Assembly (NCBI GenBank): GCA_039919075.1
Contig: JBDSGJ010000005.1
Location: 46,927-110,926 of the forward strand
Direction of reading: 5' to 3'
Source: Sphingomicrobium sp.
Lineage (GTDB): Bacteria; Pseudomonadota; Alphaproteobacteria; Sphingomonadales; Sphingomonadaceae
Length of the DNA stretch: 64,000 nucleotides
The position numbers and the translations under genes were made by a program. Below, in pieces: positions 10,855 to 63,518 of this stretch (position 1 is its first letter; every line of letters starts with the position of its first letter). Below the pieces are notes generated by a model. The model was not told the origin of the DNA. It ran no database searches and saw only the letters and a list, made by a program, of their open reading frames with translations.

Positions 10855-10872
10855 CCGGCGCGGCGCGGCGGC

Positions 10873-10901
10873 TTGACTTCGCGGCTGCATTTGCGCACAT
10901 C
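10873..10901 (+). promoter_or_regulatory. Possible sigma70 promoter of the met leader
   Basis: TTGACT followed by a 17-nt spacer and CACAT, immediately before the riboswitch. Confidence 0.4.
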
Positions 10902-10906
10902 GCAGC

Positions 10907-11029: not shown

Positions 11030-11108
11030 GTGAGTCGTCACTCAAGTGGCGACCTTGCGCTATCGGTCGCCCCGCATGCCTCGATCAACGGAGGTGAATG
11101 CGGACGAG

Positions 11109-14028: not shown

Positions 14029-14085
14029 GGTCATTCGCCTTGCTGCCTGTCCCGCGGTCAACCGCCAGAACGCGCAAAGGATGCG

Positions 14086-14862: not shown

Positions 14863-14926
14863 GGCGAGCGCGGCCTAGGGGAGGCGCGGGCAGGGGACAA
14901 GCCCGAGCCTCGAGTCGCGCGGGCCG

Positions 14927-15226
14927 TCAGGCGGCGAGGCGCAGCTCGTCGGCGATCGGTTCGGCTGAGGTCGCTGCGACGGTGGGAATCGTTGCAACGC
15001 TTGCAATAGGGGCGACGACATCGGGAAAGATCAGCCGGGTCGCAAGAACCAGCGCGCCGAGACAAAAATAGCCGACTACAGTCCATAGCGGCTGCCACAG
15101 GATCAACGGCACGAGCGCGACGCGGAACCAGTTTGCGTTGATCCCGAAATCGTCGCCAATCGCTTCGCAGACGCCGAACATGGCGGCGGGTCGATCGATG
15201 ATCGCGGGTTTTGCGGCGGTCGTCAT
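14927..15226 (-). CDS. pspC: PspC domain protein
   Basis: MFGVCEAIGDDFGINANWFRV followed by a TM segment. Confidence 0.75.
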   Translation of the reverse strand: MTTAAKPAIIDRPAAMFGVCEAIGDDFGINANWFRVALVPLILWQPLWTVVGYFCLGALVLATRLIFPDVVAPIASVATIPTVAATSAEPIADELRLAA

Positions 15227-15263
15227 GGAGAGCTCCGGTCAAAGTTGCGGTTGCCTCTCCAGA

Positions 15264-15280
15264 AGCAAGTCATGTGCCAA
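15264..15280 (-). promoter_or_regulatory. Sigma54 (-24/-12) promoter
   Basis: Minus strand TTGGCACATGACTTGCT matches TGGCAC-N5-TTGC, 38 bp upstream of the pspC start. Confidence 0.72.
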
Positions 15281-15407
15281 CTTTGATCGTTGGCTCTTTT
15301 GCGGCGTTTTAACTACCGTTGATGAACAAGGCGTTGCGACGGCGCCGCGCCTGACGCTCAAGGTTGGGAAATTTCACCGATCAAGTGCGGAGCATCATCC
15401 TGTTGGT

Positions 15408-17432
<2,025 letters not shown>

Positions 17433-17445
17433 ATTGTCGTGCCGC

Positions 17446-19281
17446 TTACTCATTGCCGGCCAGCAAGGCCAGCCGTTCCTTGATTTCGTCCCGAGCCGCG
17501 TGGAGGCGCTGCTGCTCGCCAAAGGCTTCGTCATCGCCGATGGCCAGCGCCAGCGTCGCTTCGGCGAGCGCTGCCTCGACCTCAGCCGAAGCGTTCAGCA
17601 CATCCATTGCCGCAGCCAGATCGAGTCCAGCCTGCGCCGGGTCCGTCTCGGGCCGAGTGAAAGAAAAGCCGATGCCGCCGCGCCGCCGCAAGGCGTCGCT
17701 TATGGATAATATGGGGGCGAGCGCCTCGCGATCAAGCGGCGCGCCCGACATCGCGGCGTCGACCAGAAGATCGCGTTGGGCAGCGGCGGCACGATCGGCG
17801 ATCGGCAGGTGGGCGAAGGCCTCAAGCTGGCTCGAAAGTGCGTCGGGATAGAGCGCGAAGCCAGCGATAAGCGCGCGGGCCATGGCCGCGTCGATGCCGC
17901 CACTGCCGATTGCGCGCGCGGTGGCGCTGGGAGGGCCTTCGGGGGGGATGAACTTGCGGGTCTTGGGATCATATTTGCCGCGCTTCTCGAACGGGCGACC
18001 GGGGCGCGCGGCAGGGCCCTGTGGCCGGACGAGCGCATCGAAACGCTCAAGCCATTCGTCGCGGTACAGCCGGGCCAGACTCTGGTCTCCGATCGTCCGC
18101 GCATGGTCGATCAGGCGTTGCTTCAAACCGGCGCGAGCCTCGGGCGTGGTCAGGGGGGCGGTGTCGCGCTCATGGACCCACAACCGCTCGACCAGCGGCA
18201 CCGGCTCGGCGAACAGCGCATCGAGCGCCGACTTTCCACCACTTCGCAACAAATCGTCTGGGTCCTGCCCCTGCGGCAGCGCGACAAACCGCAGCGTCCG
18301 TTCGGGGGCGAGATGGGGCAGGGCACGCATCGCCGCGCGGATCGCCGCCTTCTGTCCCGCGCTGTCGCCATCGAAGCACAGGATCGGGGCGGGATCGAGC
18401 CGCCACATCCGCTCGAGCTGGGCCTCCGTGACCGCTGTCCCGTTGGGCGCAACCGCCTCGCCGATCCCCGCCCGGTCGAGCGCGATCACGTCCATATAGC
18501 CTTCGACGACGATCAGCCGGTTTGCCTTGCGGCTGGCGGGCGCGGCGCGGTCGATATTGTAGAGCGTGCGGCCCTTGTCGAAGAGCGGGGTTTCGGGCGA
18601 GTTGAGATATTTGGGCTCGCCGTCGCCCAGGATTCGCCCCCCGAAGGCGATCACCCGGCCACGCGCGTCGCGAATCGGAATCATCAGCCGGCCACGGAAG
18701 CGGTCGTAGCTGTCCTTGTCCTCGTCCGGCTTGATCAGCATTCCGCTTTCGACCAGTCTCTCTTCGCCGAAGCTGTTGAGCGCAGCCTTCAACCGACCAC
18801 GCGCATTGGGCGCAACCCCGATCCCGAAGCGCGCCGTGACCGCCGGATCGATCCCGCGCTGCTTGAGATAGGCCCGCGCACCCTCCCCCTCGCTGCTCGC
18901 CAGCACCTCGGCAAACCAGCGCTGCGCTGCTGTCATGACGTCACCAAGACCCGTCGCCCGCTCGGCCCGCTCCTGCGCGCGCGGGTCGGCAGCGGGCACC
19001 TCCATCCCGGCCTTTCCGGCCAGTTCCTTGACCGCATCCATGAACGGCAGCCCGCCAGCCTCGGTCAGAAACCGGATCGCATCGCCATGCGCCCCGCAGC
19101 CGAAGCAATGGTAAAAGCCCTTGTCGTCATTGATCGTGAACGACGGGGTCTTTTCCTGGTGGAGCGGACAGCAGGCCTTCCACTCGCGCCCGGCGCGGAG
19201 CAGCTTGACCGACGGCGCGATCACCCCGGACAGCAGCGTGCGGGCGCGCAGTTCGTCGAGGAATTGCGGGGAGAGGCTCAC
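17446..19281 (-). CDS. dnaG: DNA primase
   Basis: Zinc finger [11 protein letters not shown]...[36 protein letters not shown]. Confidence 0.97.
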
Positions 19282-49602: not shown

Positions 49603-49682
49603 CATCCCGGGCCCGACCCGGGACCTACCTATCTTTCTTGGCCTGGTGCAAGATAAAGGTAGGCCCCGGATCAAGTCCGGGG
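49603..49682. repeat. REP-like composite palindrome (casposon target, left part)
   Basis: Hairpins TCCCGGG-ccga-type/CCCGGGA, CCTACCT...AGGTAGG and CCCCGGA-TCAAG-TCCGGGG; continues as CCGGATCAAGTCCGGGGTGACG at 63486. Confidence 0.75.
49666..49680 (+). repeat. Left target-site duplication CCGGATCAAGTCCGG
   Basis: Identical to 63486-63500. Confidence 0.9.
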
Positions 49683-49722
49683 GGTATAGTGATATGACGA
49701 AATCGATGGGTAGGTGACCACA
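49681..49722 (+). repeat. Left terminal inverted repeat
   Basis: GGGGTATAGTGATA-N19-GTGACCACA. Confidence 0.9.
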
Positions 49723-49937
49723 GTCCGCATTGGCTGTGCGGCGTTTTGTTATCAGCGCGGTAGCTCTGTAAGCGGCCCGTCGGCTCGCCTCACCTCGTCG
49801 GCGTGACCGTGACGGAAACAGCACCAATTCTTCAATGGATAGTTTTGTTGTTAATTATTGGCACTCCAGCTTCCTTTCCGCTCGCAGACCTGCTTAACAT
49901 TGTTGCGCTGCACGTGTTTTTTGGAAGGACGCCTAAA

Positions 49938-50162
49938 ATGAGGCTACTGCGATCGCTAGCCTTCGCGACGGTCGTTTGTAGTGCGTCTTCGGCGCTTGCT
50001 ACGGAAACGATTGCATATACTTATGATGCACGAGGCCGGGTGATAAAGGTCGTTCGGACGGGTACGATAAATAACAACCTCACCTACGATTACACCTTCG
50101 ACAAACCCGACAATCGGACCCGGGTTAAGGTGACTAATTCGCCAAATCCTCCGCCGCCATAA
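49938..50162 (+). CDS. Small secreted single-YD-repeat protein
   Basis: Signal peptide MRLLRSLAFATVVCSASSALA, then ETIAYTYDARGRVIKV...YTFDKPDNRT. Confidence 0.7.
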   Translation: MRLLRSLAFATVVCSASSALATETIAYTYDARGRVIKVVRTGTINNNLTYDYTFDKPDNRTRVKVTNSPNPPPP

Positions 50163-50203
50163 TCACTAACTGTTTTTTTTCGGCTGTGTGGGGGGGGCGA
50201 GTG

Positions 50204-53200
50204 ATGTTGGAATTTCGTCGGGTCAGCTTATTGCCCGCAAAGCGGCTTTTTTCGCTTGCCGCGCTTCTCTCGATTGCCCTCGCCGCCCCGAGCCATGGGC
50301 AAAGCGCGGGACCCGTAGCCAGCCCGCCTACTCGGCTAAACATCGATCAAAATGGTGTCGATGTTGTGTCGGGCACATTCGATATCCAACAAACCGATGT
50401 GGCCATCGGTCCACCCACGGGCGGCCTTCAGTACGTTCGAACGTCACGCGGTAGCGGCTGGCTAAACCCGTATTTCGGGACAATTAAAGTTTCAGGGTCG
50501 CAACGGATTGTCAGTATCGGCGGGCAGTCAACCACCTTCACGCTGACCGGTTCGGTCTACGTTTCGGATCAGGGCACCGGTGCCACGCTGGCCTACAACT
50601 CCTCAACACTCATTTATACATATACAACGCCTAATGGCGTTGTGGCGACCTTCGAGCCATTGATAAACACGAAAGTCCAATACACCGCTTACGCCGCGAC
50701 GTTAACAAAGCTCAAGTATCCGTCGGGTCTTGAACTCACAATGACCTACCGATTCCAAAATAACTGTGTTCGGGTCGGTAGTATTTGTGACGGTGGGGCT
50801 ACCAAGCGCGTTGCGCGTCTTCAATCGGCTAACTCGAATACGGGCTACCAACTAAAATTCGAATATGCCTACAATCCCAGTGATACACCGCCGTTCGATG
50901 TCGATCTCCTTGATAGCTGGTACCAACTCACCAGCGTCACGGGCCTCAATAACGCAGTCGAATATTGCGCGCCCTCCAGCAGTGTTTGCACCTACGTCAA
51001 TAGCTGGCCCAAGGCGCAGTACACAACTGACGGGCTGCAGGTTACGGACCCGCTCAATCGAGTGACCAAATACACTAAGGTAGCCAGTCGAATCACCGCC
51101 GTTCGGCGACCGTCGAGTGCCACAGATAACCTCACGCTGAGCTACGATGCGAATGCGCGGGTCGCCACTTTTTCAGACGGCGCTGGGGGTTGGACGTACG
51201 GCTACTCCGATGTGGGCAACGTCCGCACCACGACCGTCACGGATCCCGCCGGACATAACCGCATTATCGTTTCCGATCTTACATTGCTTCGTCCTACCGC
51301 AATCACGGACGAACTGGGTCGCACTACCAACTATCAATATGATGCGAATGGCCGTGTCACACGCGTCACACTTCCAGAGGGTAATTATACCAGTTTCACT
51401 TACGACGCGCGTGGGAACGAGACCCAGGCGACTTCGGTTGCGAAGGCGGGTTCGGGCTTGACTGATATAGTCGCCACCGCCAGCTATCCAGCAACGTGCA
51501 CGAATGTTGTCACATGTAACCAGCCGTCGTCGGCAACGGATGCTCGAGGAAACACCACCGACTATGTTTACGACCCGACTCATGGCGGTGTGACGAGCGT
51601 AACGTTACCTGCCCCGTCAGTTGGTGCGGTACGGCCGCAAACCCGATTCAGCTACACGCCTCTCTACGCTTGGTACAAGAACAGTGCAGGCACGATCGTC
51701 CAGGCGACATCGTCAGTTTACGAGCCTACCTCGACGTCGTCTTGCCAGTCGCTTGCTAGCTGCGCGGGCGGGTCCGATGAGGTCAAGCGAACGTTGACCT
51801 ACGGCACGTCGGGAGTCGCGAACAATCTTCTTCCGACAACATCATCGTCAGGGTCAGGGGATGGCCTACTAACTTCGACGACCACAAGTGTGTGGGATAT
51901 GTATGGTAACCCCTTCACGGTAGACGGGCCACTTGCCGGAACGGCAGACACGACGCGATTTCGGTATGACCTCGCACGTCAATTGACTGGAGTCGTCGGG
52001 CCGGATCCCGACGGCGCGGGCTCACTCAAAAATCGTGCAATGAGAAATACCTACAATCTCGATGGCCAGACGACATTAGTGGAGCGCGGCACTGTCAACA
52101 GTCAAAGCGATCCTGACTGGACGGCCTTCGCGACCTTGCAACAGGTTGCCACCAGCTACGACGCTCAGGGGCGGCGGGTAAAGGAAAGCGCGACCGCTGG
52201 CGGGACGACCTATGCGGTCACGCAATACAGCTACGACAGTATGAGTCGCGCCGATTGCACAGCAGTACGGATGAACAGCGCGGTGTTCGGTTCGCTGCCA
52301 GCCTCGGCCTGCACCGCTGGAACGCCGGGAAGCTTTGGAGCGGATCGAATCAGCAAGATGACTTACGATTGGGCGAGCGAACCTACGATATTGCAGTCCG
52401 CGCTTGGCACTGTCGACCAGGCCAATGACGTGACGCTGACTTACAGCAACAATGGCAAGAAAGCCACTTTGACGGACGCAAACGGAAATCTCACAACCAA
52501 TGAATATGACGGCTTCGATCTGCTGCTGAAAACGCGCTTTCCCTCGCCCACCGTGCCCGGAACGAGTTCGACGACGGACTATGAGCAGGCAACTTATGAT
52601 CCGGCGGCAAACGTAACGCAGAGACGTCTGCGTGACGGGCAGCTGATTGGCCTTACTTACGACGCACTCAATCGCGTCACAGCCAAGGATTTGCCGGGAG
52701 CCGAACCCGACGTCGCCTACACGTATGACAATCTGGGGCGCTTGTTGACTGCATCCCAGACTGGCCAGACGCTAACCTACTCATACGACGCACTTAGCCG
52801 CACCTTGTTGCAAGGTGGGCCGCTCGGGACAATGGCAACGCAATGGGACCTGGCCGGGCGGCGCACGCGGCTGACCTATCCGGACGCCTTCTACGTCACC
52901 TACGACAATCTTGTCACCGGTGAGGTGACAGCCATCCGCGAAAATGGAGCGGTCTCGGGCATCGGTGTACTGGGGGCGTACGCGTACGACAATCTGGGGC
53001 AGCGCTTGTCGCTTGTCAGAGGGAACGGAACTGCCAGCACTTATGGCGATGACTCAGTATCGCGCTTGATCTCGCTAGCGCATGACCTGTCGGGGACGAA
53101 CAATGACCTTACGGTGGGCCTAACCTACTCACCTGCAGCGCAGATTGCGACACGGACAGCGAGCAACGATCTTTATGCGTGGGGCGGGCATTATAATCGC

Positions 53201-54409
53201 GACATCATCGAAACGCCCAATGGATTGAACCAGTTGACTGTTCAGGGAGCAACATCACTGACCTATGACGGTCGCGGCAACACGTCGGCGGTGGGCGCTG
53301 CGAGCTATGGTTATTCGTCGGAGAATCTCCTGACTTCCGGTCCCGCCGGAGTGACTCTCAACTACGATCCGGCGCAGCGGTTGTATCAGACGGTGGGCGC
53401 CTCGACGACGCGGTTCGGCTATGATGGCGTGGAGATGATCGGGGAATATGATGGCAGTGCCGCGCTGCAGCGGCGCTATGTGCGCGGGCCGGGCAGCGAC
53501 GAGGTCCTTGTATGGTACGAAGGCAGTGGCACGGTCGATCGGCGCTGGGTCTATCAGGACGAGCGCGGCTCGACGATCGCCATCGCCAATGCCAGTGGTG
53601 CGCTCACCAATGTGTTGAGCTACGATGAATATGGCTCCCCGGCGACGGCTAATGTCGGGCGGTTTCAGTATAGCGGACAAATGTGGTTGCCCGAGCTTGG
53701 AATGGCCTATTACAAGGCGCGCATCTACGCGCCCGGTCTCGGGCGATTCATGCAGACCGACCCGATCGGCTATGCTGCTGGGATGAATCTCTACGCCTAT
53801 GTCGGGGGCGACCCCGTCAACTTCGGAGACCCTGACGGATTGTGCAGCAACAAGATCGCCGAGACCACCGACCCGAAGTGCCTTGCGCAAGACGGCAATG
53901 GAGGAATCTGGGATCGCGGGGAGTGGCGTCCGGATATACCTGTGGTGGGCAAGCCCTTCCAGCCTGGCTTTAGCGCGGGGACGACGTTTGGATCGGCGGT
54001 CGGCTATCAAATTCCTAGCGGCAACGGGAACGCAGGGACCGGCGTCGAAATGGCTTGCGTTGGACCGCTAAGAGCGCTTGCTGGAGCGTGTGCTCGCGCC
54101 TTGAACGACGTATTGAAGAGAGTTCTTCCTGAGGTAAAAGTGCCCACGCTGCCACCCGGTGTGACGCCCCGGCAATTCGGTGACGCGGCAGGCTTCGGCC
54201 GGTCACTAAAGGACCTACCCCTGCGGAGTGCAGACGACGTAGCAAACTCTGCAAACAGACTTCAGTCGATGGGTTTTACATCCAACGACGTCGCAGCGTG
54301 GCGGAATTTCTACCAGGATCAGTCATGGCGGGTGCCACAGAATCTCAGTGCGGCACATAGAGCCGGCCTTCTGGACAGAATATGGTGGAACATGAAGCTC
54401 CCATTTTGA
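50204..54409 (+). CDS. RHS/YD-repeat polymorphic toxin with signal peptide
   Basis: Many YD repeats (YDANGRVT, YDALNRVT, YDNLGRLL); core end GRFMQTDPIGY...NLYAYVGGDPVNFGDPDG followed by a variable C-terminal domain of about 190 aa. Confidence 0.92.
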   Translation: MLEFRRVSLLPAKRLFSLAALLSIALAAPSHGQSAGPVASPPTRLNIDQNGVDVVSGTFDIQQTDVAIGPPTGGLQYVRTSRGSGWLNPYFGTIKVSGSQRIVSIGGQSTTFTLTGSVYVSDQGTGATLAYNSSTLIYTYTTPNGVVATFEPLINTKVQYTAYAATLTKLKYPSGLELTMTYRFQNNCVRVGSICDGGATKRVARLQSANSNTGYQLKFEYAYNPSDTPPFDVDLLDSWYQLTSVTGLNNAVEYCAPSSSVCTYVNSWPKAQYTTDGLQVTDPLNRVTKYTKVASRITAVRRPSSATDNLTLSYDANARVATFSDGAGGWTYGYSDVGNVRTTTVTDPAGHNRIIVSDLTLLRPTAITDELGRTTNYQYDANGRVTRVTLPEGNYTSFTYDARGNETQATSVAKAGSGLTDIVATASYPATCTNVVTCNQPSSATDARGNTTDYVYDPTHGGVTSVTLPAPSVGAVRPQTRFSYTPLYAWYKNSAGTIVQATSSVYEPTSTSSCQSLASCAGGSDEVKRTLTYGTSGVANNLLPTTSSSGSGDGLLTSTTTSVWDMYGNPFTVDGPLAGTADTTRFRYDLARQLTGVVGPDPDGAGSLKNRAMRNTYNLDGQTTLVERGTVNSQSDPDWTAFATLQQVATSYDAQGRRVKESATAGGTTYAVTQYSYDSMSRADCTAVRMNSAVFGSLPASACTAGTPGSFGADRISKMTYDWASEPTILQSALGTVDQANDVTLTYSNNGKKATLTDANGNLTTNEYDGFDLLLKTRFPSPTVPGTSSTTDYEQATYDPAANVTQRRLRDGQLIGLTYDALNRVTAKDLPGAEPDVAYTYDNLGRLLTASQTGQTLTYSYDALSRTLLQGGPLGTMATQWDLAGRRTRLTYPDAFYVTYDNLVTGEVTAIRENGAVSGIGVLGAYAYDNLGQRLSLVRGNGTASTYGDDSVSRLISLAHDLSGTNNDLTVGLTYSPAAQIATRTASNDLYAWGGHYNRDIIETPNGLNQLTVQGATSLTYDGRGNTSAVGAASYGYSSENLLTSGPAGVTLNYDPAQRLYQTVGASTTRFGYDGVEMIGEYDGSAALQRRYVRGPGSDEVLVWYEGSGTVDRRWVYQDERGSTIAIANASGALTNVLSYDEYGSPATANVGRFQYSGQMWLPELGMAYYKARIYAPGLGRFMQTDPIGYAAGMNLYAYVGGDPVNFGDPDGLCSNKIAETTDPKCLAQDGNGGIWDRGEWRPDIPVVGKPFQPGFSAGTTFGSAVGYQIPSGNGNAGTGVEMACVGPLRALAGACARALNDVLKRVLPEVKVPTLPPGVTPRQFGDAAGFGRSLKDLPLRSADDVANSANRLQSMGFTSNDVAAWRNFYQDQSWRVPQNLSAAHRAGLLDRIWWNMKLPF

Positions 54410-54427
54410 GGCGAGGGAGATAGATCA

Positions 54428-54631
54428 ATGATAGTGACTATATCGAATGTGGACGATGCTGACTTTTCAGTGGTTGTGGAGCCGTACGCCGAAGAGCGAC
54501 CGTTGCCAAGGAAGTCCTCAATCAAGATCGAAATCTTATCAATTGCATTGAGTGATTATGAGATTGTTGTTGGCGATGCTGTTATATCTTTATTTATACC
54601 ATCGGATGCAAAGTATAAGTTTATCGACTGA
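54428..54631 (+). CDS. Candidate immunity protein
   Basis: Acidic 67-aa ORF with a GGGAG RBS, 18 bp after the RHS stop, AT-rich. Confidence 0.6.
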   Translation: MIVTISNVDDADFSVVVEPYAEERPLPRKSSIKIEILSIALSDYEIVVGDAVISLFIPSDAKYKFID

Positions 54632-54762
54632 TACAAGCAATTAACCAAGTTGATCTATTCGTATATATGCAAACCCAGTTAGAATTTATTTTATGCAAAG
54701 GATGGAAACGTTCGCTTTAACAAATGGTCAATTAACCCATTGTAGCTTGATCTTGCAATCGG

Positions 54763-57700
54763 TCAGGTTTTGGAGGGGGGACTACACGGCACTGTGTGGG
54801 GAGACTCCGGTGCCGTTTCGGAACCATGGGTTGTGTGGGTTGAGCGCTCATTCGATGACTTCAGTTTACGTCGCAGGTTCGACGGATCGATCTCAAGCCG
54901 CCGCGCAGTTGCTCGAAGTCCGTCACGTCTCACGGAGACCCGAAGATGGCCAAGTTCGGCCTGCCGTTCGCCACTAAACTTAGCTGCTAGACGTCGGGCC
55001 GTTGGCAATCGCCTCGTTACTTTCTCCGCCAGCTTTTTGATCTTAGGAGATTCCGGGTCTGCCACGAGTGCCTTCAGGCGAGAAATTGGAATGCCAATCA
55101 GCCTCGACCCGGTCGCGTCACCAAAGTCAAACAGATAGGATCGCAGCTCCTCGGCTACTTGGTCGGGTGACGCGCCATAAGCGACGAGGCTGTCTGGATT
55201 GAGCCCAAGGATGGCTAGCCGCTGCCAGTCGTTCGATTCCTTGCCGATATGGATGACGTGACCGGCGTGGATATGGCGCCGCCTCGTCGTGCCCCGGTCC
55301 CAGTAATCCCCGTTTAGGAACTTCGACTCAGGTTGAAGATAGTATTGGGCGAGTGCCTCAGCGTAGGTTTTGAGCGCGTCACTCGAAATCGGATCACCGC
55401 TGATTCGATCAAATGCCCCCCCTATCGCCTTAGCGTTAGACGAATCGAAGGGCGCAATTGGCCTGATGTCCGTTCGCTTCAACCGCTTCGCCCGGCGTTC
55501 GCTATCGATTACGCTTTCGACCGGCGCATCCTTCTTCGCCGTCATCGCCAGCAAAAAGCCGAATGGCTTCACCTGACTGCGATACGGCTTTCCCTTATTG
55601 AATTTCGAGAACCATTTGAGCAATTCGGGGGTAGTAGCCCCATAGCGGCTAATTGCCGGTCGCCTAAGGCCTGGATGAAAATCCATTGGCACCCTATTAG
55701 GATTGCCGCTCAGTGCAGCACAAATGATTTGATACCAAACATCCGCGTGCCAGCGCTCAATCCCTTTGCCCAAGACGGACCTATCCGGCGCCAGTATTGA
55801 TTTTGGCGCATCCGTTTCTGGATAGGGTGCTAAATGCTGCCCTAAGCCGTGAGCCGATACCTTTCGCATCATCGGCTTTTCGTCCGCTCCTAAATTAAAA
55901 AGAGCATAGCGTTTCGACGATATGGCCCAGCAGAAAAGCGGCTCCGGCAAATTGCTTTGAAGTCCCGAATTCACATCCTCAGTTTTTAGGATCGAACCTG
56001 GAAAACAATAGGGGTTCAGCGCCTCGAACCAATTCACAATCGACGCAACGCGGCTTTCAAATTCGGACGGATTCATCCCATCAGGCTTTGCAATCGCAAT
56101 GCTATCAGTATCGCAAAAAGCCCAATCCATTCCGCTTTCGATTGTCAGCGTCTCGGCAATTGCCAACATTAGCCGAGCGGCGCCTGTAATGAGTGTGCCG
56201 AGCAATGGATGAAAATACGAGCCGGGCATTTCCGATTTATCGGTTTCAAAGCTAAACGGCTCGCACGTAGAGCTATGCACTGTCGTTTTCGATTTGGAAG
56301 CGCGGCTATCGACATTGACCTCGATATAGATTCCATAGCTGACCGAATTGGCCGCAATCTTCAGCGCGTTCTGTTCAGTGTCCAGCGAATCCAATTCATT
56401 GCCAGTCGCCCCGGCCTTCCGGCCCTGAGTGGCCTTTCGCAATTCGATTAGCCGTTTGAAGAAATCGTCTTCGTAAGGTTCGATATGATAGTCCGGATTG
56501 CCAGCGATATCGATCGGTCGGAGACCGTCTTGCGGTATTCCCGCCTCAAACGAGATAGCTTCCAAAACTTCGAGCGATTTGCCGGTCAAAAGCTTTGAAG
56601 CGATGCAGTCCGCCAGCGTGAACCACAGCGGGGTTGCAGAGGTTAGGTGATTGGCGCCGATGGTCGTTTGCGCCTCGCCGCTGTACGCAGCGCGGACTGG
56701 GAAGATTTCCCCCGCCGCTTGGACGCGAACAAGAGTGGTCAGGCCGAGCCAGATTGGCTTGGACTGGAGCACAAGCAAGTCGATCGCTTCCAGCAGCTCC
56801 CTTGTCTCCGTTGTCGAGTCGCGCCACGTAACCCCTTCAGCCGCCACAAATCGCCATAGATTCATGAGCGTGCAAACTGTCGGGTACATCGATAGGAAGT
56901 CGCAAAGGATGATCTGCCGCATCTCGCGCCGAATGCGAACCTCGGAGCGCCCGCCGAAATAGCTGCCCATGATCTTGGCGAGCAGGTGGCGGGGAAATTC
57001 CGGTTGCACGTCGCGCCATGGGCGAACGCCCATTTCCCTGAGATAGCCCTTGCCGATGCTGGCTTCGCTGTAAATTTTCTCTGGTATGGTTCGCGAGAAA
57101 CCAAGCTTGGCGAACCGCCGTTGTAATTCGGCATAGCATTCCCAGGTCGTTTGAACGTCGCCGACCGCATAGCGGACCATATCCTCGGTGATTGGCCCGT
57201 TGAATTCATCGAATTCGATTTTGGGATTGGCTACTTTCAGGAAATTGCCCAAGCCTTGGAGACTAAAGCTTCTAGCAAACAAGGCTGAGGCCAAAGTCTT
57301 GACGTCAATGAAATGCCCGCGCCGGACTGGGATCGCCAGCCCACGATTGCGGTGACCGCGACCGTCCTTTTGACGCATCGGCGCCGAGAAGGCGATTAGG
57401 GCCGATCGGCGGGACAAATGCTTGACTCGGATATTGGGCCAGATTTTTTGCTCGGACAGTTTGAAGGTGAAGGCGCCCCGCATAGGAGCTTTGTCTTGGG
57501 CGAGCGGCGTCTTGGCCGTCCCATGGCTAATCGCTATGCGGGATATATCGAACGGAAGGTTAAATCCGACGATCGTTGCCCGGAGCATATAAGCCCGCTG
57601 GAAAAAGACTTCATCGACGAATTCAGTTCGCGTTCGCAGTTTGAGACCGTGCAAAGCCGCATGCTGACCGATGACCTCAAGTTCGGACGGCAAGACTCCC

Positions 57701-57954
57701 TCAGGATCGTAGAAGATTCCAGCTTCGTCCAATTCTTCGCCGCACCGAAATTGATAGGTGCCGAAGCGGAGCGCTTGCGCCGCATCGGTTGTAGTCTCGG
57801 TATCGAATATCAGCGTGAAGTCAGACGCCGGGAGTGCAGGCTTGCGCTCCTTGCGCGGCGGTTTGTTCGGGTCCGGCAAGATCGTGAACGTCGGTCCGGT
57901 ATACGCCCGCAGCGCGATTGGAAGAAAGTCCGTGATTGGGGGGATGTTGGACAT
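54763..57954 (-). CDS. polB: Family B DNA polymerase (casposon, probably protein-primed type) with C-terminal HTH
   Basis: ExoI FDTETT, ExoII GFNLPFD, ExoIII YAVGD; YFGGRSE; motif A CDFLSMYP; motif B KIAANSVSYG; motif C CDTDS. Confidence 0.93.
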   Translation of the reverse strand: MSNIPPITDFLPIALRAYTGPTFTILPDPNKPPRKERKPALPASDFTLIFDTETTTDAAQALRFGTYQFRCGEELDEAGIFYDPEGVLPSELEVIGQHAALHGLKLRTRTEFVDEVFFQRAYMLRATIVGFNLPFDISRIAISHGTAKTPLAQDKAPMRGAFTFKLSEQKIWPNIRVKHLSRRSALIAFSAPMRQKDGRGHRNRGLAIPVRRGHFIDVKTLASALFARSFSLQGLGNFLKVANPKIEFDEFNGPITEDMVRYAVGDVQTTWECYAELQRRFAKLGFSRTIPEKIYSEASIGKGYLREMGVRPWRDVQPEFPRHLLAKIMGSYFGGRSEVRIRREMRQIILCDFLSMYPTVCTLMNLWRFVAAEGVTWRDSTTETRELLEAIDLLVLQSKPIWLGLTTLVRVQAAGEIFPVRAAYSGEAQTTIGANHLTSATPLWFTLADCIASKLLTGKSLEVLEAISFEAGIPQDGLRPIDIAGNPDYHIEPYEDDFFKRLIELRKATQGRKAGATGNELDSLDTEQNALKIAANSVSYGIYIEVNVDSRASKSKTTVHSSTCEPFSFETDKSEMPGSYFHPLLGTLITGAARLMLAIAETLTIESGMDWAFCDTDSIAIAKPDGMNPSEFESRVASIVNWFEALNPYCFPGSILKTEDVNSGLQSNLPEPLFCWAISSKRYALFNLGADEKPMMRKVSAHGLGQHLAPYPETDAPKSILAPDRSVLGKGIERWHADVWYQIICAALSGNPNRVPMDFHPGLRRPAISRYGATTPELLKWFSKFNKGKPYRSQVKPFGFLLAMTAKKDAPVESVIDSERRAKRLKRTDIRPIAPFDSSNAKAIGGAFDRISGDPISSDALKTYAEALAQYYLQPESKFLNGDYWDRGTTRRRHIHAGHVIHIGKESNDWQRLAILGLNPDSLVAYGASPDQVAEELRSYLFDFGDATGSRLIGIPISRLKALVADPESPKIKKLAEKVTRRLPTARRLAAKFSGERQAELGHLRVSVRRDGLRATARRLEIDPSNLRRKLKSSNERSTHTTHGSETAPESPHTVPCSPPSKT

Positions 57955-58316
57955 TAGAAATCTCCCGAGGGTGTTGGTGCAGAGCGTTCGATAAGCTGTT
58001 CGCCAAAGGTCGTGAGCTTTTCGAGGATGCGTCGAAGCATGTCGGCCAGGCCAAGCAGAAAGCGGCCAATGGCGTGCAACGTCGCATCGGCGTTCGGATC
58101 GAAGGCCGGATGGTCCTTCTGGGTATCGGATAGCTTGCGGTGGCAATTGCGACATGCGATCACGGTGGTGTCATCGCAGCCGAAATCGGCGGCGTGATGA
58201 AGCTCCATGCAGCGCCAGTCATCTTCGCCGCAAATGCAGCAGCTCGGTTCATTCGATCCTAGCGCTTCGAGCCGACGCTGCTTTCGCTGTTCCCACTTAA
58301 GTTGATCTTCGGTCAC
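57954..58316 (-). CDS. HNH endonuclease-like Zn-binding protein
   Basis: CCICG...ELHH...IACRNCHRK; GGAG RBS before the GTG; its stop overlaps the polB ATG (TAATG). Confidence 0.8.
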   Translation of the reverse strand: MTEDQLKWEQRKQRRLEALGSNEPSCCICGEDDWRCMELHHAADFGCDDTTVIACRNCHRKLSDTQKDHPAFDPNADATLHAIGRFLLGLADMLRRILEKLTTFGEQLIERSAPTPSGDF

Positions 58317-58329
58317 GTTAGTTCTCCTT

Positions 58330-58899
58330 TCAAATGATGAGACGGTAGATTTCATGGAAAACTTCATCGCCCTGCGCGGCCATGCGGTGCAGGCGGTTGG
58401 GGTCAGTTTCGAGGGGATGCATCTTGCCATGCACATCGCGGACCGAACGGCCTTCGAAGGGTCGGAGCAGGTCGATATCGTTCGAGTTCAGAAAGGCGCC
58501 GACTGCTGCCGAGTGCTGGCCATTGAGGGAGGCTTGCTCAAAGCCGTCGAGCGTAAGTTCTTTCGAATCGCCCTCAGTTATGACCGTCATGCGACGCGGG
58601 CGGTTGTCGGTGATTTGCCAAAGGCGCCCGGTCCGTTGTGCAAGGGAGTTGTGGCGCAGGAAACGGCGGAATCGCTCGGGTGCGACCCCGGCCTGTTTCG
58701 CAGCGGCGGCTTGGCGACCCGTTTGGCGTAGGAGCTTCAGCGCCGCTTCAAGCTTTTGGTCGGTAATGAAAGGCTGAGCGCGAACGGGCGACTCGATCGA
58801 TCGAGCGTGGCCGCGAGCCTGCGACCGACTCAGGCCGCGCTTGGCGGCGTTCGCGATGCGGCGCTGATATTCAGCCTGATAGTTGCGAGTCGTTGCCAT
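58330..58899 (-). CDS. Hypothetical DNA-binding protein (HTH-like)
   Basis: AAAAKQAGVAPERFRRFL helix-turn-helix-like segment; first gene of the operon with HNH and polB. Confidence 0.6.
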   Translation of the reverse strand: MATTRNYQAEYQRRIANAAKRGLSRSQARGHARSIESPVRAQPFITDQKLEAALKLLRQTGRQAAAAKQAGVAPERFRRFLRHNSLAQRTGRLWQITDNRPRRMTVITEGDSKELTLDGFEQASLNGQHSAAVGAFLNSNDIDLLRPFEGRSVRDVHGKMHPLETDPNRLHRMAAQGDEVFHEIYRLII

Positions 58900-58973
58900 G
58901 CCCCAATTGGAGCTGGAGTCAGGACGCTACGCGAATCGAATAAAGGAAAGAATTACGAACAGTTTTGTCTAGA

Positions 58974-59633
58974 TCAATTCGATTTCCAAAAGACCTTCAA
59001 ATGCCGATCAATAGCTCTATTACTTGGAGCGGAATTCGTAAAAATATGAGGAAACATTATTAGACCATGGCGATGAACAGCGGACGATTGTCGGCCCGGC
59101 TTCAATCCTTCTATTTGACTCTTGATCGATTCTGCGATTGCAAAAACATAGCTTTTAATTGAGGGGCGTCCTATTTTGGTTTCCTGTAGTTCAATGGCCC
59201 CAGCGACACGCACCTTGGCATAACGGTATTCGCCGTCGCGGAATTCTGACTTTCGGTAATCAATAAATTTGTGTTGAAAGAGAAAGGGCGGAACAAGCTC
59301 ATGTGGTGCATCTGACCCTTTTGAGGTGAGAAAACCAATTGCAATTAGCCGACCGCTTTCGAGAGCTTCGATAAATTGGTTTTGCTGACTGCAATATGAT
59401 TCGGTCCTTATCGCCAAATCGACCTGCAAATTTTCTGCGGCCTTAAAAATTAGCTCCGCATCGCTACCGGCAGTCGCGAATTTATGCCGCGAATATTGCG
59501 AATTATCCCTGATTTGGCCTTCAACTTTTGCTAGTCGGGATTCGTCCGGATTTGGCACGAACGTCGCCAATATCTTGCTTAGCGGCGTGCCGCTTTGCCA
59601 CAAACGGGACAGGGTCGCGGTGCTTAGTGGCAT
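58974..59633 (-). CDS. Hypothetical protein (start could extend to 59702)
   Basis: Long open frame in an AT-rich stretch; C-terminal GRPS followed by a helical segment. Confidence 0.6.
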   Translation of the reverse strand: MPLSTATLSRLWQSGTPLSKILATFVPNPDESRLAKVEGQIRDNSQYSRHKFATAGSDAELIFKAAENLQVDLAIRTESYCSQQNQFIEALESGRLIAIGFLTSKGSDAPHELVPPFLFQHKFIDYRKSEFRDGEYRYAKVRVAGAIELQETKIGRPSIKSYVFAIAESIKSQIEGLKPGRQSSAVHRHGLIMFPHIFTNSAPSNRAIDRHLKVFWKSN

Positions 59634-59729
59634 GAGGGCGGCGGCTGAATAGTCATTGGGAATCCGGTGATAAGGGGCGGATTTTAAAGACCCGTTAACC
59701 ACCTAAACATGATGTGAATTCAGCTCTTT

Positions 59730-60851
59730 ATGTTAAAGGTCGGTATGCTCCATGGAATTGAAATTCGATCCGACGAAATTGCCGACGAGTGGGCGATCCG
59801 CTCTGAGTTCTGGCAAGGCGAAGCGGCTTCCCCGAAACGGGTTCGTCGCAAGCGAGAGCGCAACGCGCAACCCTTAATTTTATGCGGACATGGCGTGTCG
59901 CTCCGGATTGAAAATGGCGCGCTCGTAATTCGGGACGGCTTCACGCATTACCCACAAGAGCAGGCGCGGTATCGGTTTTTCCCACGCGACCTAGAGCTTC
60001 CAACGCGCATTCTCTTGCTGGACGGTAGTGGAACCCTCTCGTTCGACGTATTGAACTGGCTTGCCGACCAAGGCGTTGCACTGGCCCGCATCAAATGGAC
60101 TGGCGAGGTCGCGACAGTGGCGGGCGGGAATGGTTACGCGGCGGACCCCGCGAAATTGGATTGGCAGAAGGAAACTCGTGGCAACCCCGCGAAACGCCAC
60201 GCTTTTGCAGCCAATCTTATTCGCCTGAAAGTTGTTGCCAGCCTCGATACGCTTGAGCGCTGCATCCCGGACACTCGCGCCCGCCAAATGGCGACCGGAA
60301 AAGCAAGGGCGGCGATCGAACGACTCCAAGTCGAAGTTTTCCCTGACTTGAATGCGATATTTGCGGTCGAAGGTGAGTGTGCGTCATCCTACTTCGCGGC
60401 GTGGCACGGACTGCCGGTTCATTGGATTGGGCTTTCTAGGCGTCCCGTTCCCAATGATTGGCAGTGCTACTCGGGGCGCAGCTCGCTCGCAGTTGGCATC
60501 AAACCGGAGAACCGGAACGCCTCACACCCTATCAACGCGATGTTGAATTACGCTTACGCGGTGAAACTCTCGCAGCTTCAAATCGACACGATCGCGGGCG
60601 GGTTCGATCCCAGACTGGGGATCATGCATAACAGTCACAAGGGCACCCCGGCGCTGGTTTTGGATTTCATCGAGCTAGAGAGGCCCCGCGTTGACGCAAA
60701 GATATTGGAACTGGTCGCAACCCGCAAATTTGCGGCGGCTGATTTCATCGTAAAGGATGATGGTGTCTGTCGCCTGTCGCCGCAGCTAGCGCGGGCCGTC
60801 GCCATCCTTACGGTCCAATGCAAACCGTTTGGACTTCCGACCACGCTTTAA
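59730..60851 (+). CDS. cas1: Stand-alone Cas1 (casposase)
   Basis: Cas1 catalytic-type motifs EGECASSYF, INAMLNYAY, GFDPRLGIMH, LVLDFIELERPRVD; N-terminal LRIENGALVI beta domain; no cas2 or array nearby. Confidence 0.92.
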   Translation: MLKVGMLHGIEIRSDEIADEWAIRSEFWQGEAASPKRVRRKRERNAQPLILCGHGVSLRIENGALVIRDGFTHYPQEQARYRFFPRDLELPTRILLLDGSGTLSFDVLNWLADQGVALARIKWTGEVATVAGGNGYAADPAKLDWQKETRGNPAKRHAFAANLIRLKVVASLDTLERCIPDTRARQMATGKARAAIERLQVEVFPDLNAIFAVEGECASSYFAAWHGLPVHWIGLSRRPVPNDWQCYSGRSSLAVGIKPENRNASHPINAMLNYAYAVKLSQLQIDTIAGGFDPRLGIMHNSHKGTPALVLDFIELERPRVDAKILELVATRKFAAADFIVKDDGVCRLSPQLARAVAILTVQCKPFGLPTTL

Positions 60852-61085
60852 GCCCGCTTCCAAGGCACCCCCCTCAGCAAGCGGCACGAACAGCTCGCTT
60901 AGGTGAACGCCCAATGTCGCGGCGAGTTTGTCGAGGACATCAACGCTCGGATTCTCCTCAGCGCGTTCCACTCCACCTAAATAGGAACGGTCCACTCCAG
61001 CATCAAAAGCAAGCCGTTCTTGCGAAACATCACTCGCAACGCGAATGCGCCTTAGGTTTCGTGCAATGATATCGCGCCCGCGCAT
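60786..61085 (-). CDS. XRE family HTH regulator
   Basis: NLRRIR...VSQERLA..AGVDRSYLGGVERAEENPSVDVLDKLA. Confidence 0.9.
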   Translation of the reverse strand: MRGRDIIARNLRRIRVASDVSQERLAFDAGVDRSYLGGVERAEENPSVDVLDKLAATLGVHLSELFVPLAEGGALEAGLKRGRKSKRFALDRKDGDGPR

Positions 61086-61174
61086 AGGCAGGCCAAAGCT
61101 ATTTACGGGACATTAAACCACGGGCGATATCCATCTAATTAGAGTTTCAAGGTCACTCTGATGGAGATGTCACC

Positions 61175-61765
61175 ATGTTTTTCCTTCCCCTGCTGTTAGC
61201 GACAATATCCCAAGCCCCTGCTTCCCCTCGTTCCTCGTCCCTCCCCAACGCCGATAATGGTCGAAATGCCAAGGTCATATCTGCAACCCTAGCGAGAGAC
61301 ATAGATGGGGTAGCGCTTGGCGCGTCTATCGGCAGCGTTCGCAAGATGATGACGCTCACGTCGATCGGCGGCGAGCAATTCCAAGGCCGAATGGCGTCAG
61401 TCGATTTTGACCTTGAGTTCACGCCCTTAGGGCGGTTGTTCCGCATAAGCTCGAAACAGAATTTGGGGCAATTCGAGATAGATAAGGATTTCAACCAGAC
61501 CTTAAACCGCAGACTAGCTACAAAATACGGTGTCCCGCGCGGCGCTTCGATCGACACCCGCTATTGGAAGCTAATTCAGGACGTCGAAGATGCCGATGGG
61601 AAACAGCATCCCTTTGTCGTCAACTGGTTGAATGTTGATGCATCGCGCGGCTACGATGGGGTCGAGTTGACGATGACGATGATCGATTTCCGCTACCTCA
61701 TGGCCGATAGGGCCAGATTGAACCACAAACCTCGCAATCAGGCCGAGGGGAATATTTCATTCTGA
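61175..61765 (+). CDS. Hypothetical secreted protein
   Basis: Hydrophobic N-terminus MFFLPLLLATISQAPA; 196-aa open frame. Confidence 0.6.
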   Translation: MFFLPLLLATISQAPASPRSSSLPNADNGRNAKVISATLARDIDGVALGASIGSVRKMMTLTSIGGEQFQGRMASVDFDLEFTPLGRLFRISSKQNLGQFEIDKDFNQTLNRRLATKYGVPRGASIDTRYWKLIQDVEDADGKQHPFVVNWLNVDASRGYDGVELTMTMIDFRYLMADRARLNHKPRNQAEGNISF

Positions 61766-61895
61766 AGTGTCCACTATCACATGACGGACGAGCCGAGCCA
61801 TAGACTGCACGGGCCAATACACTTTAGGTTGCTAAAATCAGTTAGCTTCACAGTAGAATGGCAATTAATTTCTGATATGCTTTGCGACCAGAAGG

Positions 61896-63362
61896 GTGAA
61901 TGATTTGGCCAAAGGCAGACGCAACCAGCGAGTATCCACGGTTTATAAACTCAAACGGTCGCAGGCGACTTTAGATTTTGTGGACGTAGATGTAGCTCGG
62001 GACACGAAGGTCTTTGTTAGCCCGCGTGCGCTCACGCTTATGCAAACAGATTGGGGCGATGGCTGCGTTTCACTCGTTCAAAACTTCTTCGAAACCGTCC
62101 TTCAGCGAATCAAGGATGGAGATGACGCGGGTGCCGAAGCTCTTTTGCAGGAATTAAGGGAGCCTAATGAAACACATCTTGGGCTTTCGAGTAGGGAGTC
62201 GCGCGGCCGCGCGTTGGGCAATGAATCCGCGCATGATGTTTGGTCTGCGCTCAGCCAGAGTGCGGCCGCAAAATCGGGCCTCATTCACGACCTCGAAGAC
62301 ACGGTGCTTCTGATTCACGGTATTGGGGTAGATATTGTCTCGGATGTGACCACCAATATCATACGCGGCCCGTTGATCGCTTACACTCAAGAGCAATGCA
62401 GACAGCTTGGCATTCCGCTCATTGCGGACGTGCCATCGGGACCGATTTGGCACCCGGCAAGGCGAGAATGGATTGCCAAATTTGTTGAACTTCCAATGCC
62501 TAAGACCGGGAAACTTTTGCTTGTTCCAAAGGCGATCGTCCGGCGCACGTCACTTTATGACATGCAGGAGTATTATCGTCATTTCATGCTTGAACACATG
62601 CAACGTGAAGAACTTAAGGCCGGTTCGGCCCTAATAACTATGTTGAAGAAGGGGCCAAAAGTTCACAAAAGCGATCTGATTGATAAGTATGGTGGCGACA
62701 AGAGCGCCGTAATCGAGCAAACGATGAAATATCCCGATGTCTTAGACGACTATCGTCGGGAAAAAGGCAAACGTCCGTTCCTACCCCTCAGTCACGAAGA
62801 CCTCGAAAACCTTGAAGGCAGCTCGCCCGTGGATTGGGATTCGCTCCTAGACGCGGTGACATCGCTGCCGACTGGCACCCAGGACGCATCTTCCTACGAA
62901 AAGGCTATCGAAGCGCTTCTTACTGCACTCTTTTACCCCGATTTGGTTCATCCTGTATATCAACATGAAATCCATGACGGTCGAAAACGGATCGATATCA
63001 AATATACCAATATGGGCGGAGCCGGATTCTTCGCTTGGTTATCTAGGCACTACACAGCGCCCCAAGTTTTCGTGGAATGCAAAAATTACGGTGGCAAAGT
63101 CGCAAACCCAGAACTCGATCAGCTCGCTGGTCGGTTTGGTCGCAGTCGAGGCAATTTCGGAATTCTTGTTTGCCGTCAGTTCGATAACACGGCTCGATTT
63201 CAGCAAAGCTGTTGCGATACCGCTAGGGACGATCGGGGTTATATCGTTGCACTCGACGACGACGATTTGAAGGCACTCGTGGAGGCTCGCAAGGCCAATG
63301 ACGAAGAAGTTTATCGAGATTTACCCCTACTAAGAGAGCGTTTCGAGCAACTCATTGCATAG
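61896..63362 (+). CDS. Hypothetical protein with a C-terminal PD-(D/E)XK restriction-endonuclease-like domain
   Basis: YEKAIEALL...RIDIKY...VFVECKNYG...LDQL.GRF motif order. Confidence 0.7.
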   Translation: MNDLAKGRRNQRVSTVYKLKRSQATLDFVDVDVARDTKVFVSPRALTLMQTDWGDGCVSLVQNFFETVLQRIKDGDDAGAEALLQELREPNETHLGLSSRESRGRALGNESAHDVWSALSQSAAAKSGLIHDLEDTVLLIHGIGVDIVSDVTTNIIRGPLIAYTQEQCRQLGIPLIADVPSGPIWHPARREWIAKFVELPMPKTGKLLLVPKAIVRRTSLYDMQEYYRHFMLEHMQREELKAGSALITMLKKGPKVHKSDLIDKYGGDKSAVIEQTMKYPDVLDDYRREKGKRPFLPLSHEDLENLEGSSPVDWDSLLDAVTSLPTGTQDASSYEKAIEALLTALFYPDLVHPVYQHEIHDGRKRIDIKYTNMGGAGFFAWLSRHYTAPQVFVECKNYGGKVANPELDQLAGRFGRSRGNFGILVCRQFDNTARFQQSCCDTARDDRGYIVALDDDDLKALVEARKANDEEVYRDLPLLRERFEQLIA

Positions 63363-63443
63363 GACGGATTGCATCTGGCTAGCGGCCACCAAAGTTCAAA
63401 TGGTCGGGAACGGCGGGCACACCGACTACCCCATCGCCGCAAG

Positions 63444-63485
63444 TGTGGTCACACTCGCTCGGTTCAGCAGCTATCACTATACCCC
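63444..63485 (-). repeat. Right terminal inverted repeat
   Basis: TGTGGTCAC-N19-TATCACTATACCCC, the reverse complement of the left-end architecture. Confidence 0.9.
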
Positions 63486-63500
63486 CCGGATCAAGTCCGG
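63486..63500 (+). repeat. Right target-site duplication CCGGATCAAGTCCGG
   Basis: Identical to 49666-49680. Confidence 0.9.
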
Positions 63501-63518
63501 GGTGACGAAGAGAGGTAG

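Follow-up and report, generated by a model that had tools for sequence, protein, structure and literature searches.

Organisation of the casposon and position of its RHS operon

The stretch of DNA analysed here, referred to as the window, comprises 64,000 nucleotides of contig JBDSGJ010000005.1 and originates from the alphaproteobacterium Sphingomicrobium sp. It contains at positions 49681–63485 a casposon of 13,805 bp, that is, a self-replicating mobile element whose integrase is a Cas1 homologue. Inside the left end of this element lies an operon for an RHS protein with a putative secretion leader and for a candidate immunity protein. This operon is almost certainly cargo of an intact casposon. 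RHS/YD proteins form shells in which polymorphic toxins, located at the C-terminus, are enclosed and delivered; the cognate immunity gene is located immediately downstream. Casposons have been studied mainly as ancestors of the CRISPR adaptation machinery and are treated as rare, mostly archaeal elements whose genes are mainly DNA-related.

The casposase is a stand-alone Cas1 of 373 aa (59730–60851, + strand), which was recognised by the profiles Cas_Cas1 of Pfam (E 1.5e-30) and TIGR00287 (E 3.6e-22). No CRISPR or tandem arrays were found in the 64-kb window, and no cas2 gene is present among the open reading frames (ORFs) of the casposon. The second hallmark protein is a family B DNA polymerase (PolB) of 1063 aa (54763–57954, − strand), whose gene runs towards the RHS operon in a convergent orientation. 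Searches gave more than 1,900 homologues of PolB, most of them from Sphingomonadales. Its direct Pfam match is weak (E 0.0035), PF00136 is detected in many close homologues, and the motif FCDTDS is invariant across the homologue alignment.

The sequence GGGGTATAGTGATA occurs exactly twice in the window, at 49681–49694 (+ strand) and at 63472–63485 (− strand). The sequence CCGGATCAAGTCCGG likewise has exactly two copies, which abut both ends of the casposon and form a target site duplication (TSD) of 15 bp. The left copy (49666–49680) belongs to a GC-rich hairpin, CCCCGGATCAAGTCCGGGG, with a thiD-like gene on one side and rnhB on the other; the right copy is located at 63486–63500. The left terminal inverted repeat (49681–49722, + strand) consists of the 14 perfect bases GGGGTATAGTGATA and of the subterminal motif GTGACCACA at offset 34–42. 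In the right terminal inverted repeat (63444–63485, − strand), the reverse complement of GGGGTATAGTGATA ends at 63485, and the subterminal motif recurs in inverted orientation at the same offset. The longest inverted repeat of the region pairs 49664–49694 with 63472–63502. Due to runs of G and C, the exact border between TSD and terminal repeat is ambiguous by approximately 2 nt. The base composition follows these borders: the G+C content of the host flanks is about 0.65, decreases to 0.50–0.60 from approximately 49.7 kb and stays low until approximately 63.5 kb, with values of 0.41–0.61 for blocks of the casposon.

The original prediction had placed an RHS block of about 4.7 kb, a third of the element, just inside the left terminal inverted repeat of a casposon. 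This location and size were confirmed. The pair of terminal repeats and the TSD are unique and enclose Cas1 and PolB together with the RHS block, which spans 49938–54631 (4,694 bp, 34% of the casposon) and is located in the arm that extends from the 3' end of polB to the left terminal repeat. No further copy of a terminal repeat was found between the RHS block and PolB, and no direct or inverted repeats of at least 9 nt exist between 49695–49940 and 54410–54765. As no such repeats bracket the block, it shows no insertion boundaries of its own. Apart from terminal repeat and TSD, the RHS arm of the window has no nucleotide homology to sister elements.

Given that the source is a rhizosphere metagenome assembly of low coverage (approximately 5–7x depth), the RHS block might be host DNA that was attributed to the casposon by a misassigned end or by a chimeric assembly. 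This explanation is hardly credible and is largely refuted, because there is a single pair of terminal repeats with a perfect TSD and without an internal copy, and because independent Logan contigs from four metagenome runs of the source study cover the greater part of the RHS block, as well as the remainder of the casposon, at host-like depth. Moreover, the G+C content of the RHS gene (0.58) resembles that of the casposon and not that of the host (0.65). Finally, two elements from unrelated samples, which are described below, show the same arrangement within their own pairs of terminal repeats and TSDs.

The RHS operon

The RHS block consists of three co-directional ORFs of 74, 1401 and 67 aa. 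The first one (49938–50162, + strand) codes for a small, presumably secreted YD-repeat protein with the leader MRLLRSLAFATVVCSASSALA, one YD hairpin, a PPPP tail and a weak match to RHS_repeat. The second ORF (50204–54409) encodes the RHS protein. Its residues 1–1213 (50204–53842, + strand) comprise a leader, a conserved N-terminal region, the YD shell and the core. The repeats are matched by the profiles RHS_repeat (E 1.3e-22) and YD_repeat_2x (E 1.7e-18); a precomputed annotation adds TEN_YD-shell. The model TIGR03696 of the RHS core is matched in full (model positions 1–76 of 76) at residues 1140–1213 with E 2.4e-21. The core ends with ...GGDPVNFGDPDGL at residue 1213, and its last five residues DPDGL (1209–1213) fit the autoproteolysis motif PxxxxDPxGL, which makes this position a predicted cleavage site. 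A further 188 aa follow. The N-terminus of the protein has the three-part look of a Sec-type signal peptide (MLEFRRVSLLPAKR / LFSLAALLSIALAA / PSHG-Q). Thus, the small YD protein, the 1401-aa RHS protein with its DPxG motif and the downstream ORF are all located where they had been predicted, the signal peptide being read by eye.

More than 3,298 homologues of the RHS protein were found. They have a length of approximately 1,330–1,570 aa and originate from Sphingomonas, Caulobacterales and related groups. Their alignments with the query cover only about 85–87% of its length, i.e. they extend up to the core, and the C-termini therefore vary, as is usual for polymorphic toxins.

The C-terminal domain and the small downstream ORF

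The 188-aa C-terminal domain (CT; 53843–54409, + strand) occupies the toxin position, and its last ~90 aa form a helical bundle that resembles DUF4951. The AT-rich third ORF of the operon (67 aa, 54428–54631, + strand; G+C 0.41) starts 19 nt after the RHS stop codon and codes for the candidate immunity protein. A word-indexed search identified a single homologue of CT, namely P0241, an orphan RHS C-terminus of 276 aa with 60% identity over CT residues 58–174. At the locus of P0241 (L090), a 64-aa ORF comes next, overlaps it by 4 nt and shares 35% identity with the 67-aa ORF (E 9e-11). The latter has five relatives in a full HMMER scan of 1.84 billion representatives. As a rare CT and a rare small ORF recur together at two unrelated loci, the assignment as a toxin-immunity pair is supported, and this co-occurrence is the best available evidence for a cognate pair. 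We consider it probable that the operon is a toxin-immunity system of the RHS kind.

Because the word-indexed search gave only one homologue, no deep alignment is available for CT, and the AlphaFold2 (AF2) model is confident for the last ~90 residues only. There, it consists of a five-helix bundle (residues ~100–188) with values of the predicted local distance difference test (pLDDT) of 70–90; residues 1–96 have a pLDDT below 50. The score of CT against DUF4951 is 25.6 bits, which is below the cut-off of 27.3. An uncharacterised nuclear magnetic resonance structure from Acinetobacter baumannii (PDB 2mmb) is matched by sequence with E 0.004 and by fold with a Foldseek probability of 1.00 and TMt 0.59. 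A second RHS protein, P0168, contains DUF4951 behind a HINT domain, which is again the toxin position. No mention of DUF4951 was found in the literature searched.

Secreted YD-shell proteins are not necessarily antibacterial, since the anti-eukaryotic Tc toxins are established members of this group. The RHS protein might act on eukaryotes or predators such as amoebae, nematodes or plant and fungal cells of the rhizosphere, or it might serve in adhesion or at the cell surface. In that case, the small ORF would be unrelated or code for a chaperone. A Sec leader instead of a type VI secretion system (T6SS) PAAR or VgrG domain, the origin from a rhizosphere metagenome and the lack of a functionally annotated match to the CT model in the fold search agree with this alternative. 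It is nevertheless improbable. The co-occurrence of the small AT-rich ORF with CT at a second locus is a signature of self-protection, which is normally lacking in anti-eukaryotic toxins, and a cassette of an orphan CT and a small ORF as found at L090 is typical of antibacterial polymorphic toxin loci. In addition, no TcA- or TcB-like partner genes were found among the casposon ORFs.

The casposon family and its cargo slot

A PolB scan with one genome per GTDB species yielded 373 loci, 79 of which were analysed as sister loci (L001–L079); further loci from metagenome and homology searches carry the numbers up to L095. A scan of viral contigs detected no sister elements, and scanning metagenome contigs with a single PolB sequence gave only two poor loci. 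Nearly all 79 sister loci share the gene order 189-aa gene, HNH nuclease and PolB with a divergent Cas1. A search for the terminus GGGTATAGTGAT (terminus form (G)GGGTATAG..) delimited complete elements of 5.8–19.9 kb in 47 of the 79 loci, and each of the 47 is flanked by a perfect TSD of 14–15 bp. Many distinct insertion sites with perfect TSDs thus exist across a large and mostly alphaproteobacterial family that is abundant in Alphaproteobacteria; its hosts include Hyphomonadaceae and Nitrosomonas.

In the sister elements, the cargo arm, which extends from PolB to the terminal repeat on its side, has a length of 1.3–7.6 kb. The 114 ORFs of at least 120 aa from the PolB-side arms of the 47 elements were surveyed for their function. 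Most common are DNA methylases, components of type I, II, IIG and III restriction systems and HNH nucleases, as well as KAP NTPases, CAP12/Pycsar-type TIR effectors, AbiEii-like ATPases, recombinases and RepB/ParB proteins. Among the PADLOC models, those for MADS, type IIG restriction-modification, PDC-S35 and DrmMI of DISARM gave matches in these arms. The PolB-side arm appears therefore to be rich in defence genes. In the closest metagenome relatives of the window casposon, the same slot contains GmrSD (L080, PolB identity 84%), a reverse transcriptase (L084, 81%) or small ORFs and a PilZ gene (L081–L083, 79%). Since these close relatives carry other cargo, the slot is a hot spot of fast turnover for conflict genes, and the RHS operon was acquired recently relative to the divergence of the window PolB.

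Several cargo genes of this slot deserve separate mention. Large ORFs of 1189–1550 aa in L018, L040, L078 and L034 have no Pfam match. In L084, a 110-aa fragment of Cas1 (10930–11262) and a helix-turn-helix (HTH) gene follow downstream of the reverse transcriptase, which suggests a tandem, nested or rearranged second casposon. A metagenome-assembled genome (MAG) from Hyphomonadaceae contains a casposon (L066, 5554–18826) with a perfect 15-bp TSD and the terminal repeats of the family, whose cargo arm harbours a complete type II CRISPR-Cas locus. It comprises cas9 (15101–18514, − strand; TIGR01865, E 6e-174), a type II cas1 (14212–15156, − strand), cas2 (13883–14317, − strand) and an array of 18 repeats of 36 nt with 30-nt spacers (12653–13840). 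The casposase Cas1 and the CRISPR proteins Cas1 and Cas2 are thus encoded in one element, on a MAG contig that is possibly a chimeric assembly. The array is the only one found among loci L001–L095, and its spacers gave no meaningful matches to any of the fetched loci. No description of a CRISPR-Cas9 locus as casposon cargo was found in the literature; where casposons appear in a review from 2024 on mobile elements with CRISPR, it is solely as the ancestors from which the adaptation module arose.

RHS modules in other elements and their proposed origin

Among the 79 genome loci, one full RHS module (L015) and one orphan (L010) were found; one full module from a metagenome (L093) and that of the window add to this number. 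L015, from a Sphingomonadales MAG, is an element at 6105–18403 with a perfect 15-bp TSD. Its module is located directly inside the PolB-side terminal repeat and encodes a 79-aa YD protein (51% identical to that of the window), an RHS protein of 1429 aa with a different C-terminus behind DPSGL, and a hydrophobic ORF of 98 aa. L093, a metagenome contig of the Joint Genome Institute with matches to both PolB and RHS, contains an element at approximately 804–14116 with its own pair of terminal repeats and TSD; at its PolB-side end, it encodes a YD protein of 70 aa, an RHS protein of 1360 aa and an ORF of 128 aa. The orphan in the PolB-side arm of L010 (13222–13935) is a 'mini-RHS' of 237 aa, in which a signal peptide is joined directly to the final ~35 core residues (…DPVNLVDPDG), with a C-terminal domain behind them; an ORF of 147 aa follows. 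Full modules in two further elements and an orphan in a third, together with the missing boundaries around the block, agree with the original prediction that RHS genes are cargo of such elements. In the sister elements, this slot is mostly filled with defence genes.

The small YD protein is likewise not confined to the window. Homologues are encoded directly upstream of RHS genes in L015 (13250–13489), L087 (9630–9848, 64% identity), L089 (303–527, 54% identity), L093 (9263–9475) and L095 (7403–7624). Of the contexts examined for this clade of RHS proteins with Sec leader, only L088 and L094 lack a preceding YD partner of 70–79 aa. This partner might act as a cap, as an adaptor or as a chaperone.

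The original prediction had raised the question whether homologous elements swap the C-termini of their RHS proteins. The C-termini of the RHS proteins from the window, L015, L093 and L087 are indeed mutually unrelated. Swapping within one casposon-borne RHS lineage was nonetheless rejected, as the three cores are not each other's relatives: those of the window, L015 and L093 are mutually 42–48% identical, and each of them has relatives elsewhere with 46–56% identity. In a neighbour-joining tree of 121 RHS cores, the common ancestor of the three is the root of the whole set. Furthermore, the orientation differs: L015 and L093 have their operons in the same direction as polB, and in the window the two converge. 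The nearest relatives of the RHS proteins are located next to a type II secretion system (T2SS; L087 and L088), on a plasmid-like contig (L089), next to a Trb/VirB type IV secretion system (T4SS; L094) and in a chromosomal region rich in insertion sequences (L095). Because the cores are scattered, have relatives outside of casposons and, in the window, belong to an inverted module, we read the modules as whole units that were taken up repeatedly from an RHS pool that is itself mobile. In the simplest reading of these sequences, RHS modules would have been captured independently at least three times in this family.

It is conceivable that such a module is a neutral hitch-hiker, i.e. a recent and accidental passenger that confers no advantage and will be lost or replaced. 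RHS genes are rare among members of the family, and the three modules are independent and do not form a casposon-specific RHS lineage. In addition, L010 and L015 are 82% identical at the nucleotide level across the core and have no homology beyond PolB or in the cargo arm, and L010 has retained only an orphan C-terminus. We regard this possibility as unlikely, since all three genes, that for the RHS protein and those for its partners, are intact in L015, L093 and the window, and since the same three-gene architecture has been captured repeatedly into the same arm. Moreover, nearly all other cargo on the PolB side is conflict-related, which argues for selection on cargo content.

Insertion into GC-rich hairpins

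For 44 sister elements from L001–L079, the empty sites were reconstructed. The TSD is centred on a GC-rich stem-loop; a central stem that is perfect over 6 bp or more was found in 30 of the 44 empty sites, compared to 25 of 860 control windows (Mann-Whitney p = 3e-12). The reconstructed empty site of the window forms a hairpin with a 9-bp stem. Several target hairpins resemble intrinsic terminators, and the targets can be described as terminator-like or REP-like (repetitive extragenic palindrome). The target hairpin CCGGATCAAGTCCGG of the window was reused in L019, L020, L036, L038, L049 and L093. As no thiD homologue is encoded in any of the fetched loci, it is the hairpin, rather than the locus, that serves as target. 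We infer from these sequences that the casposon family inserts into GC-rich hairpins. No description of such a target preference of casposons was found in the literature.

In one of the metagenome runs (X1), a contig matches the right terminal repeat (at window position 63487) and then continues into a different flank (TGCGAAAGC...). This contig suggests that the end of a second, related casposon is located at another hairpin in the same community.

Other genes of the element and of the window

Upstream of PolB, the element encodes a putative HNH-type nuclease (57954–58436, − strand), in which the motif CxxC...CRNCH can be read. The gene is kept at this position in nearly all 79 sister loci. 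The protein was recognised by its motif and by its conservation beside PolB, and it has no Pfam match at E 0.01. Its true start is probably internal, since the sister genes encode 120–133 aa. The adjacent core protein of 189 aa (58330–58899, − strand) is present in nearly all sister loci with 35–71% identity. A 242-aa ORF (58974–59702, − strand) occurs in some sisters only and has weak homologues in L012, L015, L020 and L032. On the other side of Cas1, an XRE-type HTH protein of 99 aa (60786–61085, − strand; HTH_3, E 3.1e-13) is conserved in many sisters. It is followed by a semi-conserved accessory ORF of 196 aa (61175–61765, + strand), which has homologues with 36–39% identity in L001, L011, L015 and L052; L080 contains a 196-aa gene at the matching position.

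The Cas1-side arm of the window carries a second cargo gene, which codes for a protein of 488 aa with an Mrr-like restriction endonuclease domain (61896–63362, + strand; Mrr_cat, E 9.9e-05). This protein is 76% identical to that encoded at L026:5290–6744 in an element from Novosphingobium sediminicola, whereas the PolBs of the two elements are only 55% identical. This contrast indicates that distant members of the family exchange cargo.

Two observations concern the window outside of the casposon. A SAM (S-box) riboswitch was detected at 10906–11030 (+ strand) with 70.4 bits. At 17293–17388, ARAGORN reports a 'tRNA-???' of 96 nt with a two-base anticodon; Rfam gives no tRNA there, and the call is probably a false positive.

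Comparison with known systems

The casposon of the window resembles HenMar-C1 from Henriciella marina and the other family 3 casposons (Krupovic et al. 2014, PMC4046053). It shares with them a stand-alone Cas1, a family B polymerase, an HTH protein, terminal inverted repeats and a TSD of approximately 15 bp; an HNH nuclease is likewise predicted. The host is again an alphaproteobacterium, and the accessory genes vary. HNH and HTH proteins are hallmarks of casposon families 2 and 3 (PMC4046053). The element therefore fits a bacterial, HenMar-C1-like (family 3-like) casposon, a placement that is based on host range and gene content. It differs from the described family 3 casposons in its presumably secreted RHS module and in an apparent preference for hairpin targets. 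The founding casposon papers, including PMC4046053, call bacterial casposons few, and as cargo they report DNA-handling enzymes, methyltransferases, nucleases, a Ser/Thr kinase and similar genes, and no secreted toxin. Toxin cargo is not known among described casposons, as the original prediction had stated, and our literature search found no paper linking casposons with Rhs. The single paper that mentions both 'casposon' and 'polymorphic toxin' appears to concern archaeal 'dark matter' genes.

A YD shell, an RHS core with PxxxxDPxGL, a variable C-terminus and a small downstream ORF are features that the RHS operon has in common with T6SS Rhs effectors, with the Sec-dependent WapA of Bacillus and with TcC of the Tc toxins. 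Unlike T6SS Rhs effectors, the RHS protein of the window contains neither a PAAR nor a VgrG domain according to profile searches, and the neighbours of its homologues are T2SS, plasmid or T4SS genes. In contrast to TcC, it has no adjacent TcB or TcA. The combination of a Sec leader in a Gram-negative host, a conserved upstream YD partner, a DUF4951-like CT and a location on a casposon distinguishes it from the known RHS/YD systems.

With regard to the organisation of their cargo, pipolins (PMC11551731) and Tn7-like elements are comparable, as they also combine a replication and integration core with a hot spot of exchangeable conflict genes. In the family of the window casposon, however, the integrase is a Cas1 homologue, and the cargo comprises offensive RHS genes in addition to defence. 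A 2024 study of pipolins (PMC11551731) reported for 48 reference casposons a lower share of defence genes than for pipolins. By comparison, the PolB-side arm of the alphaproteobacterial family surveyed here appears defence-rich.

Toxin-immunity cargo is commonplace on other mobile elements, and RHS toxins are familiar from plasmids and islands. The surprise is moderate for this reason: RHS cargo is rare and new for casposons, i.e. the vehicle is new and the weapon is known.

Proposed mechanism and its assessment

The following sequence of events is proposed. The N-terminal leaders of the RHS protein and of the small YD protein would direct both to the Sec pathway for export; judged from the sequence, Sec-dependent export is most likely for the RHS protein. 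Subsequently, they may cross the outer membrane via the T2SS of the host. This step is proposed because close homologues of the RHS protein adjoin T2SS clusters: genes for GspD/E/F/G and pseudopilins are located at L087:1–5853 and at L088:17629–24290, beside two of the three closest relatives of the window RHS protein, which hints that this clade may be a T2SS substrate. The YD-repeat shell would enclose the 188-aa CT, and the core would cut itself after DPDGL, which would free the DUF4951-like CT into a neighbouring cell. The 67-aa protein would neutralise the toxin in the producer and its kin. Cells with the casposon would then kill or inhibit cells without it, including segregants, so that the host is favoured and loss of the element is penalised. 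The module itself would have been captured whole from a pool of related RHS modules, whose other members are found next to T2SS clusters and on plasmids or conjugative elements.

We assign a probability of roughly 0.6 to the reading that the operon exports, kills and protects in this manner and was captured whole at least three times. Several points weigh against it. The signal peptides of the RHS and YD proteins were judged by eye. CT has no known enzymatic or pore-forming relative, its sole structural match 2mmb is uncharacterised, and its first ~96 residues were modelled with low confidence. The link to the T2SS is derived from two neighbouring contexts, no T2SS genes were found in the 64-kb window, and delivery into the target cell would have to do without a T6SS. 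RHS cargo is rare and the captures look young, which is the same as expected of a neutral, transient passenger. Finally, the four metagenome runs of the source study contain neither an empty-site joint nor excision reads, and no reads skip the casposon; for the window copy, there is thus no sign of recent mobility.

That the element gains from the operon, or is stabilised by it, via competition or addiction is a pure inference, which we put forward tentatively and with somewhat less than even odds. It is based on the intact gene, the conserved pairing of CT with the small ORF and what is generally known of RHS systems. A more far-reaching idea is that the whole family is a hairpin-targeting shuttle for defence and offence systems, in which the RHS pair acts as a population-level addiction module, because neighbours kill those cells that lose the element; this idea is rather doubtful.

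Implications

A bacterial casposon family with a defined cargo slot carries anti-phage defence and, occasionally, what is probably a complete secreted weapon of the interbacterial type, accompanied by a likely immunity gene. Should the RHS pair be active, this would be the first example of a casposon by which the host competes differently, and it would provide an experimental handle on the question why large transposons persist. If the pair indeed causes addiction, it would represent a persistence strategy that has not previously been attributed to casposons. The features of the family as a whole, namely its abundance, the targeting of hairpins and a conflict slot that can contain CRISPR-Cas9, are at least as interesting as the RHS cargo.

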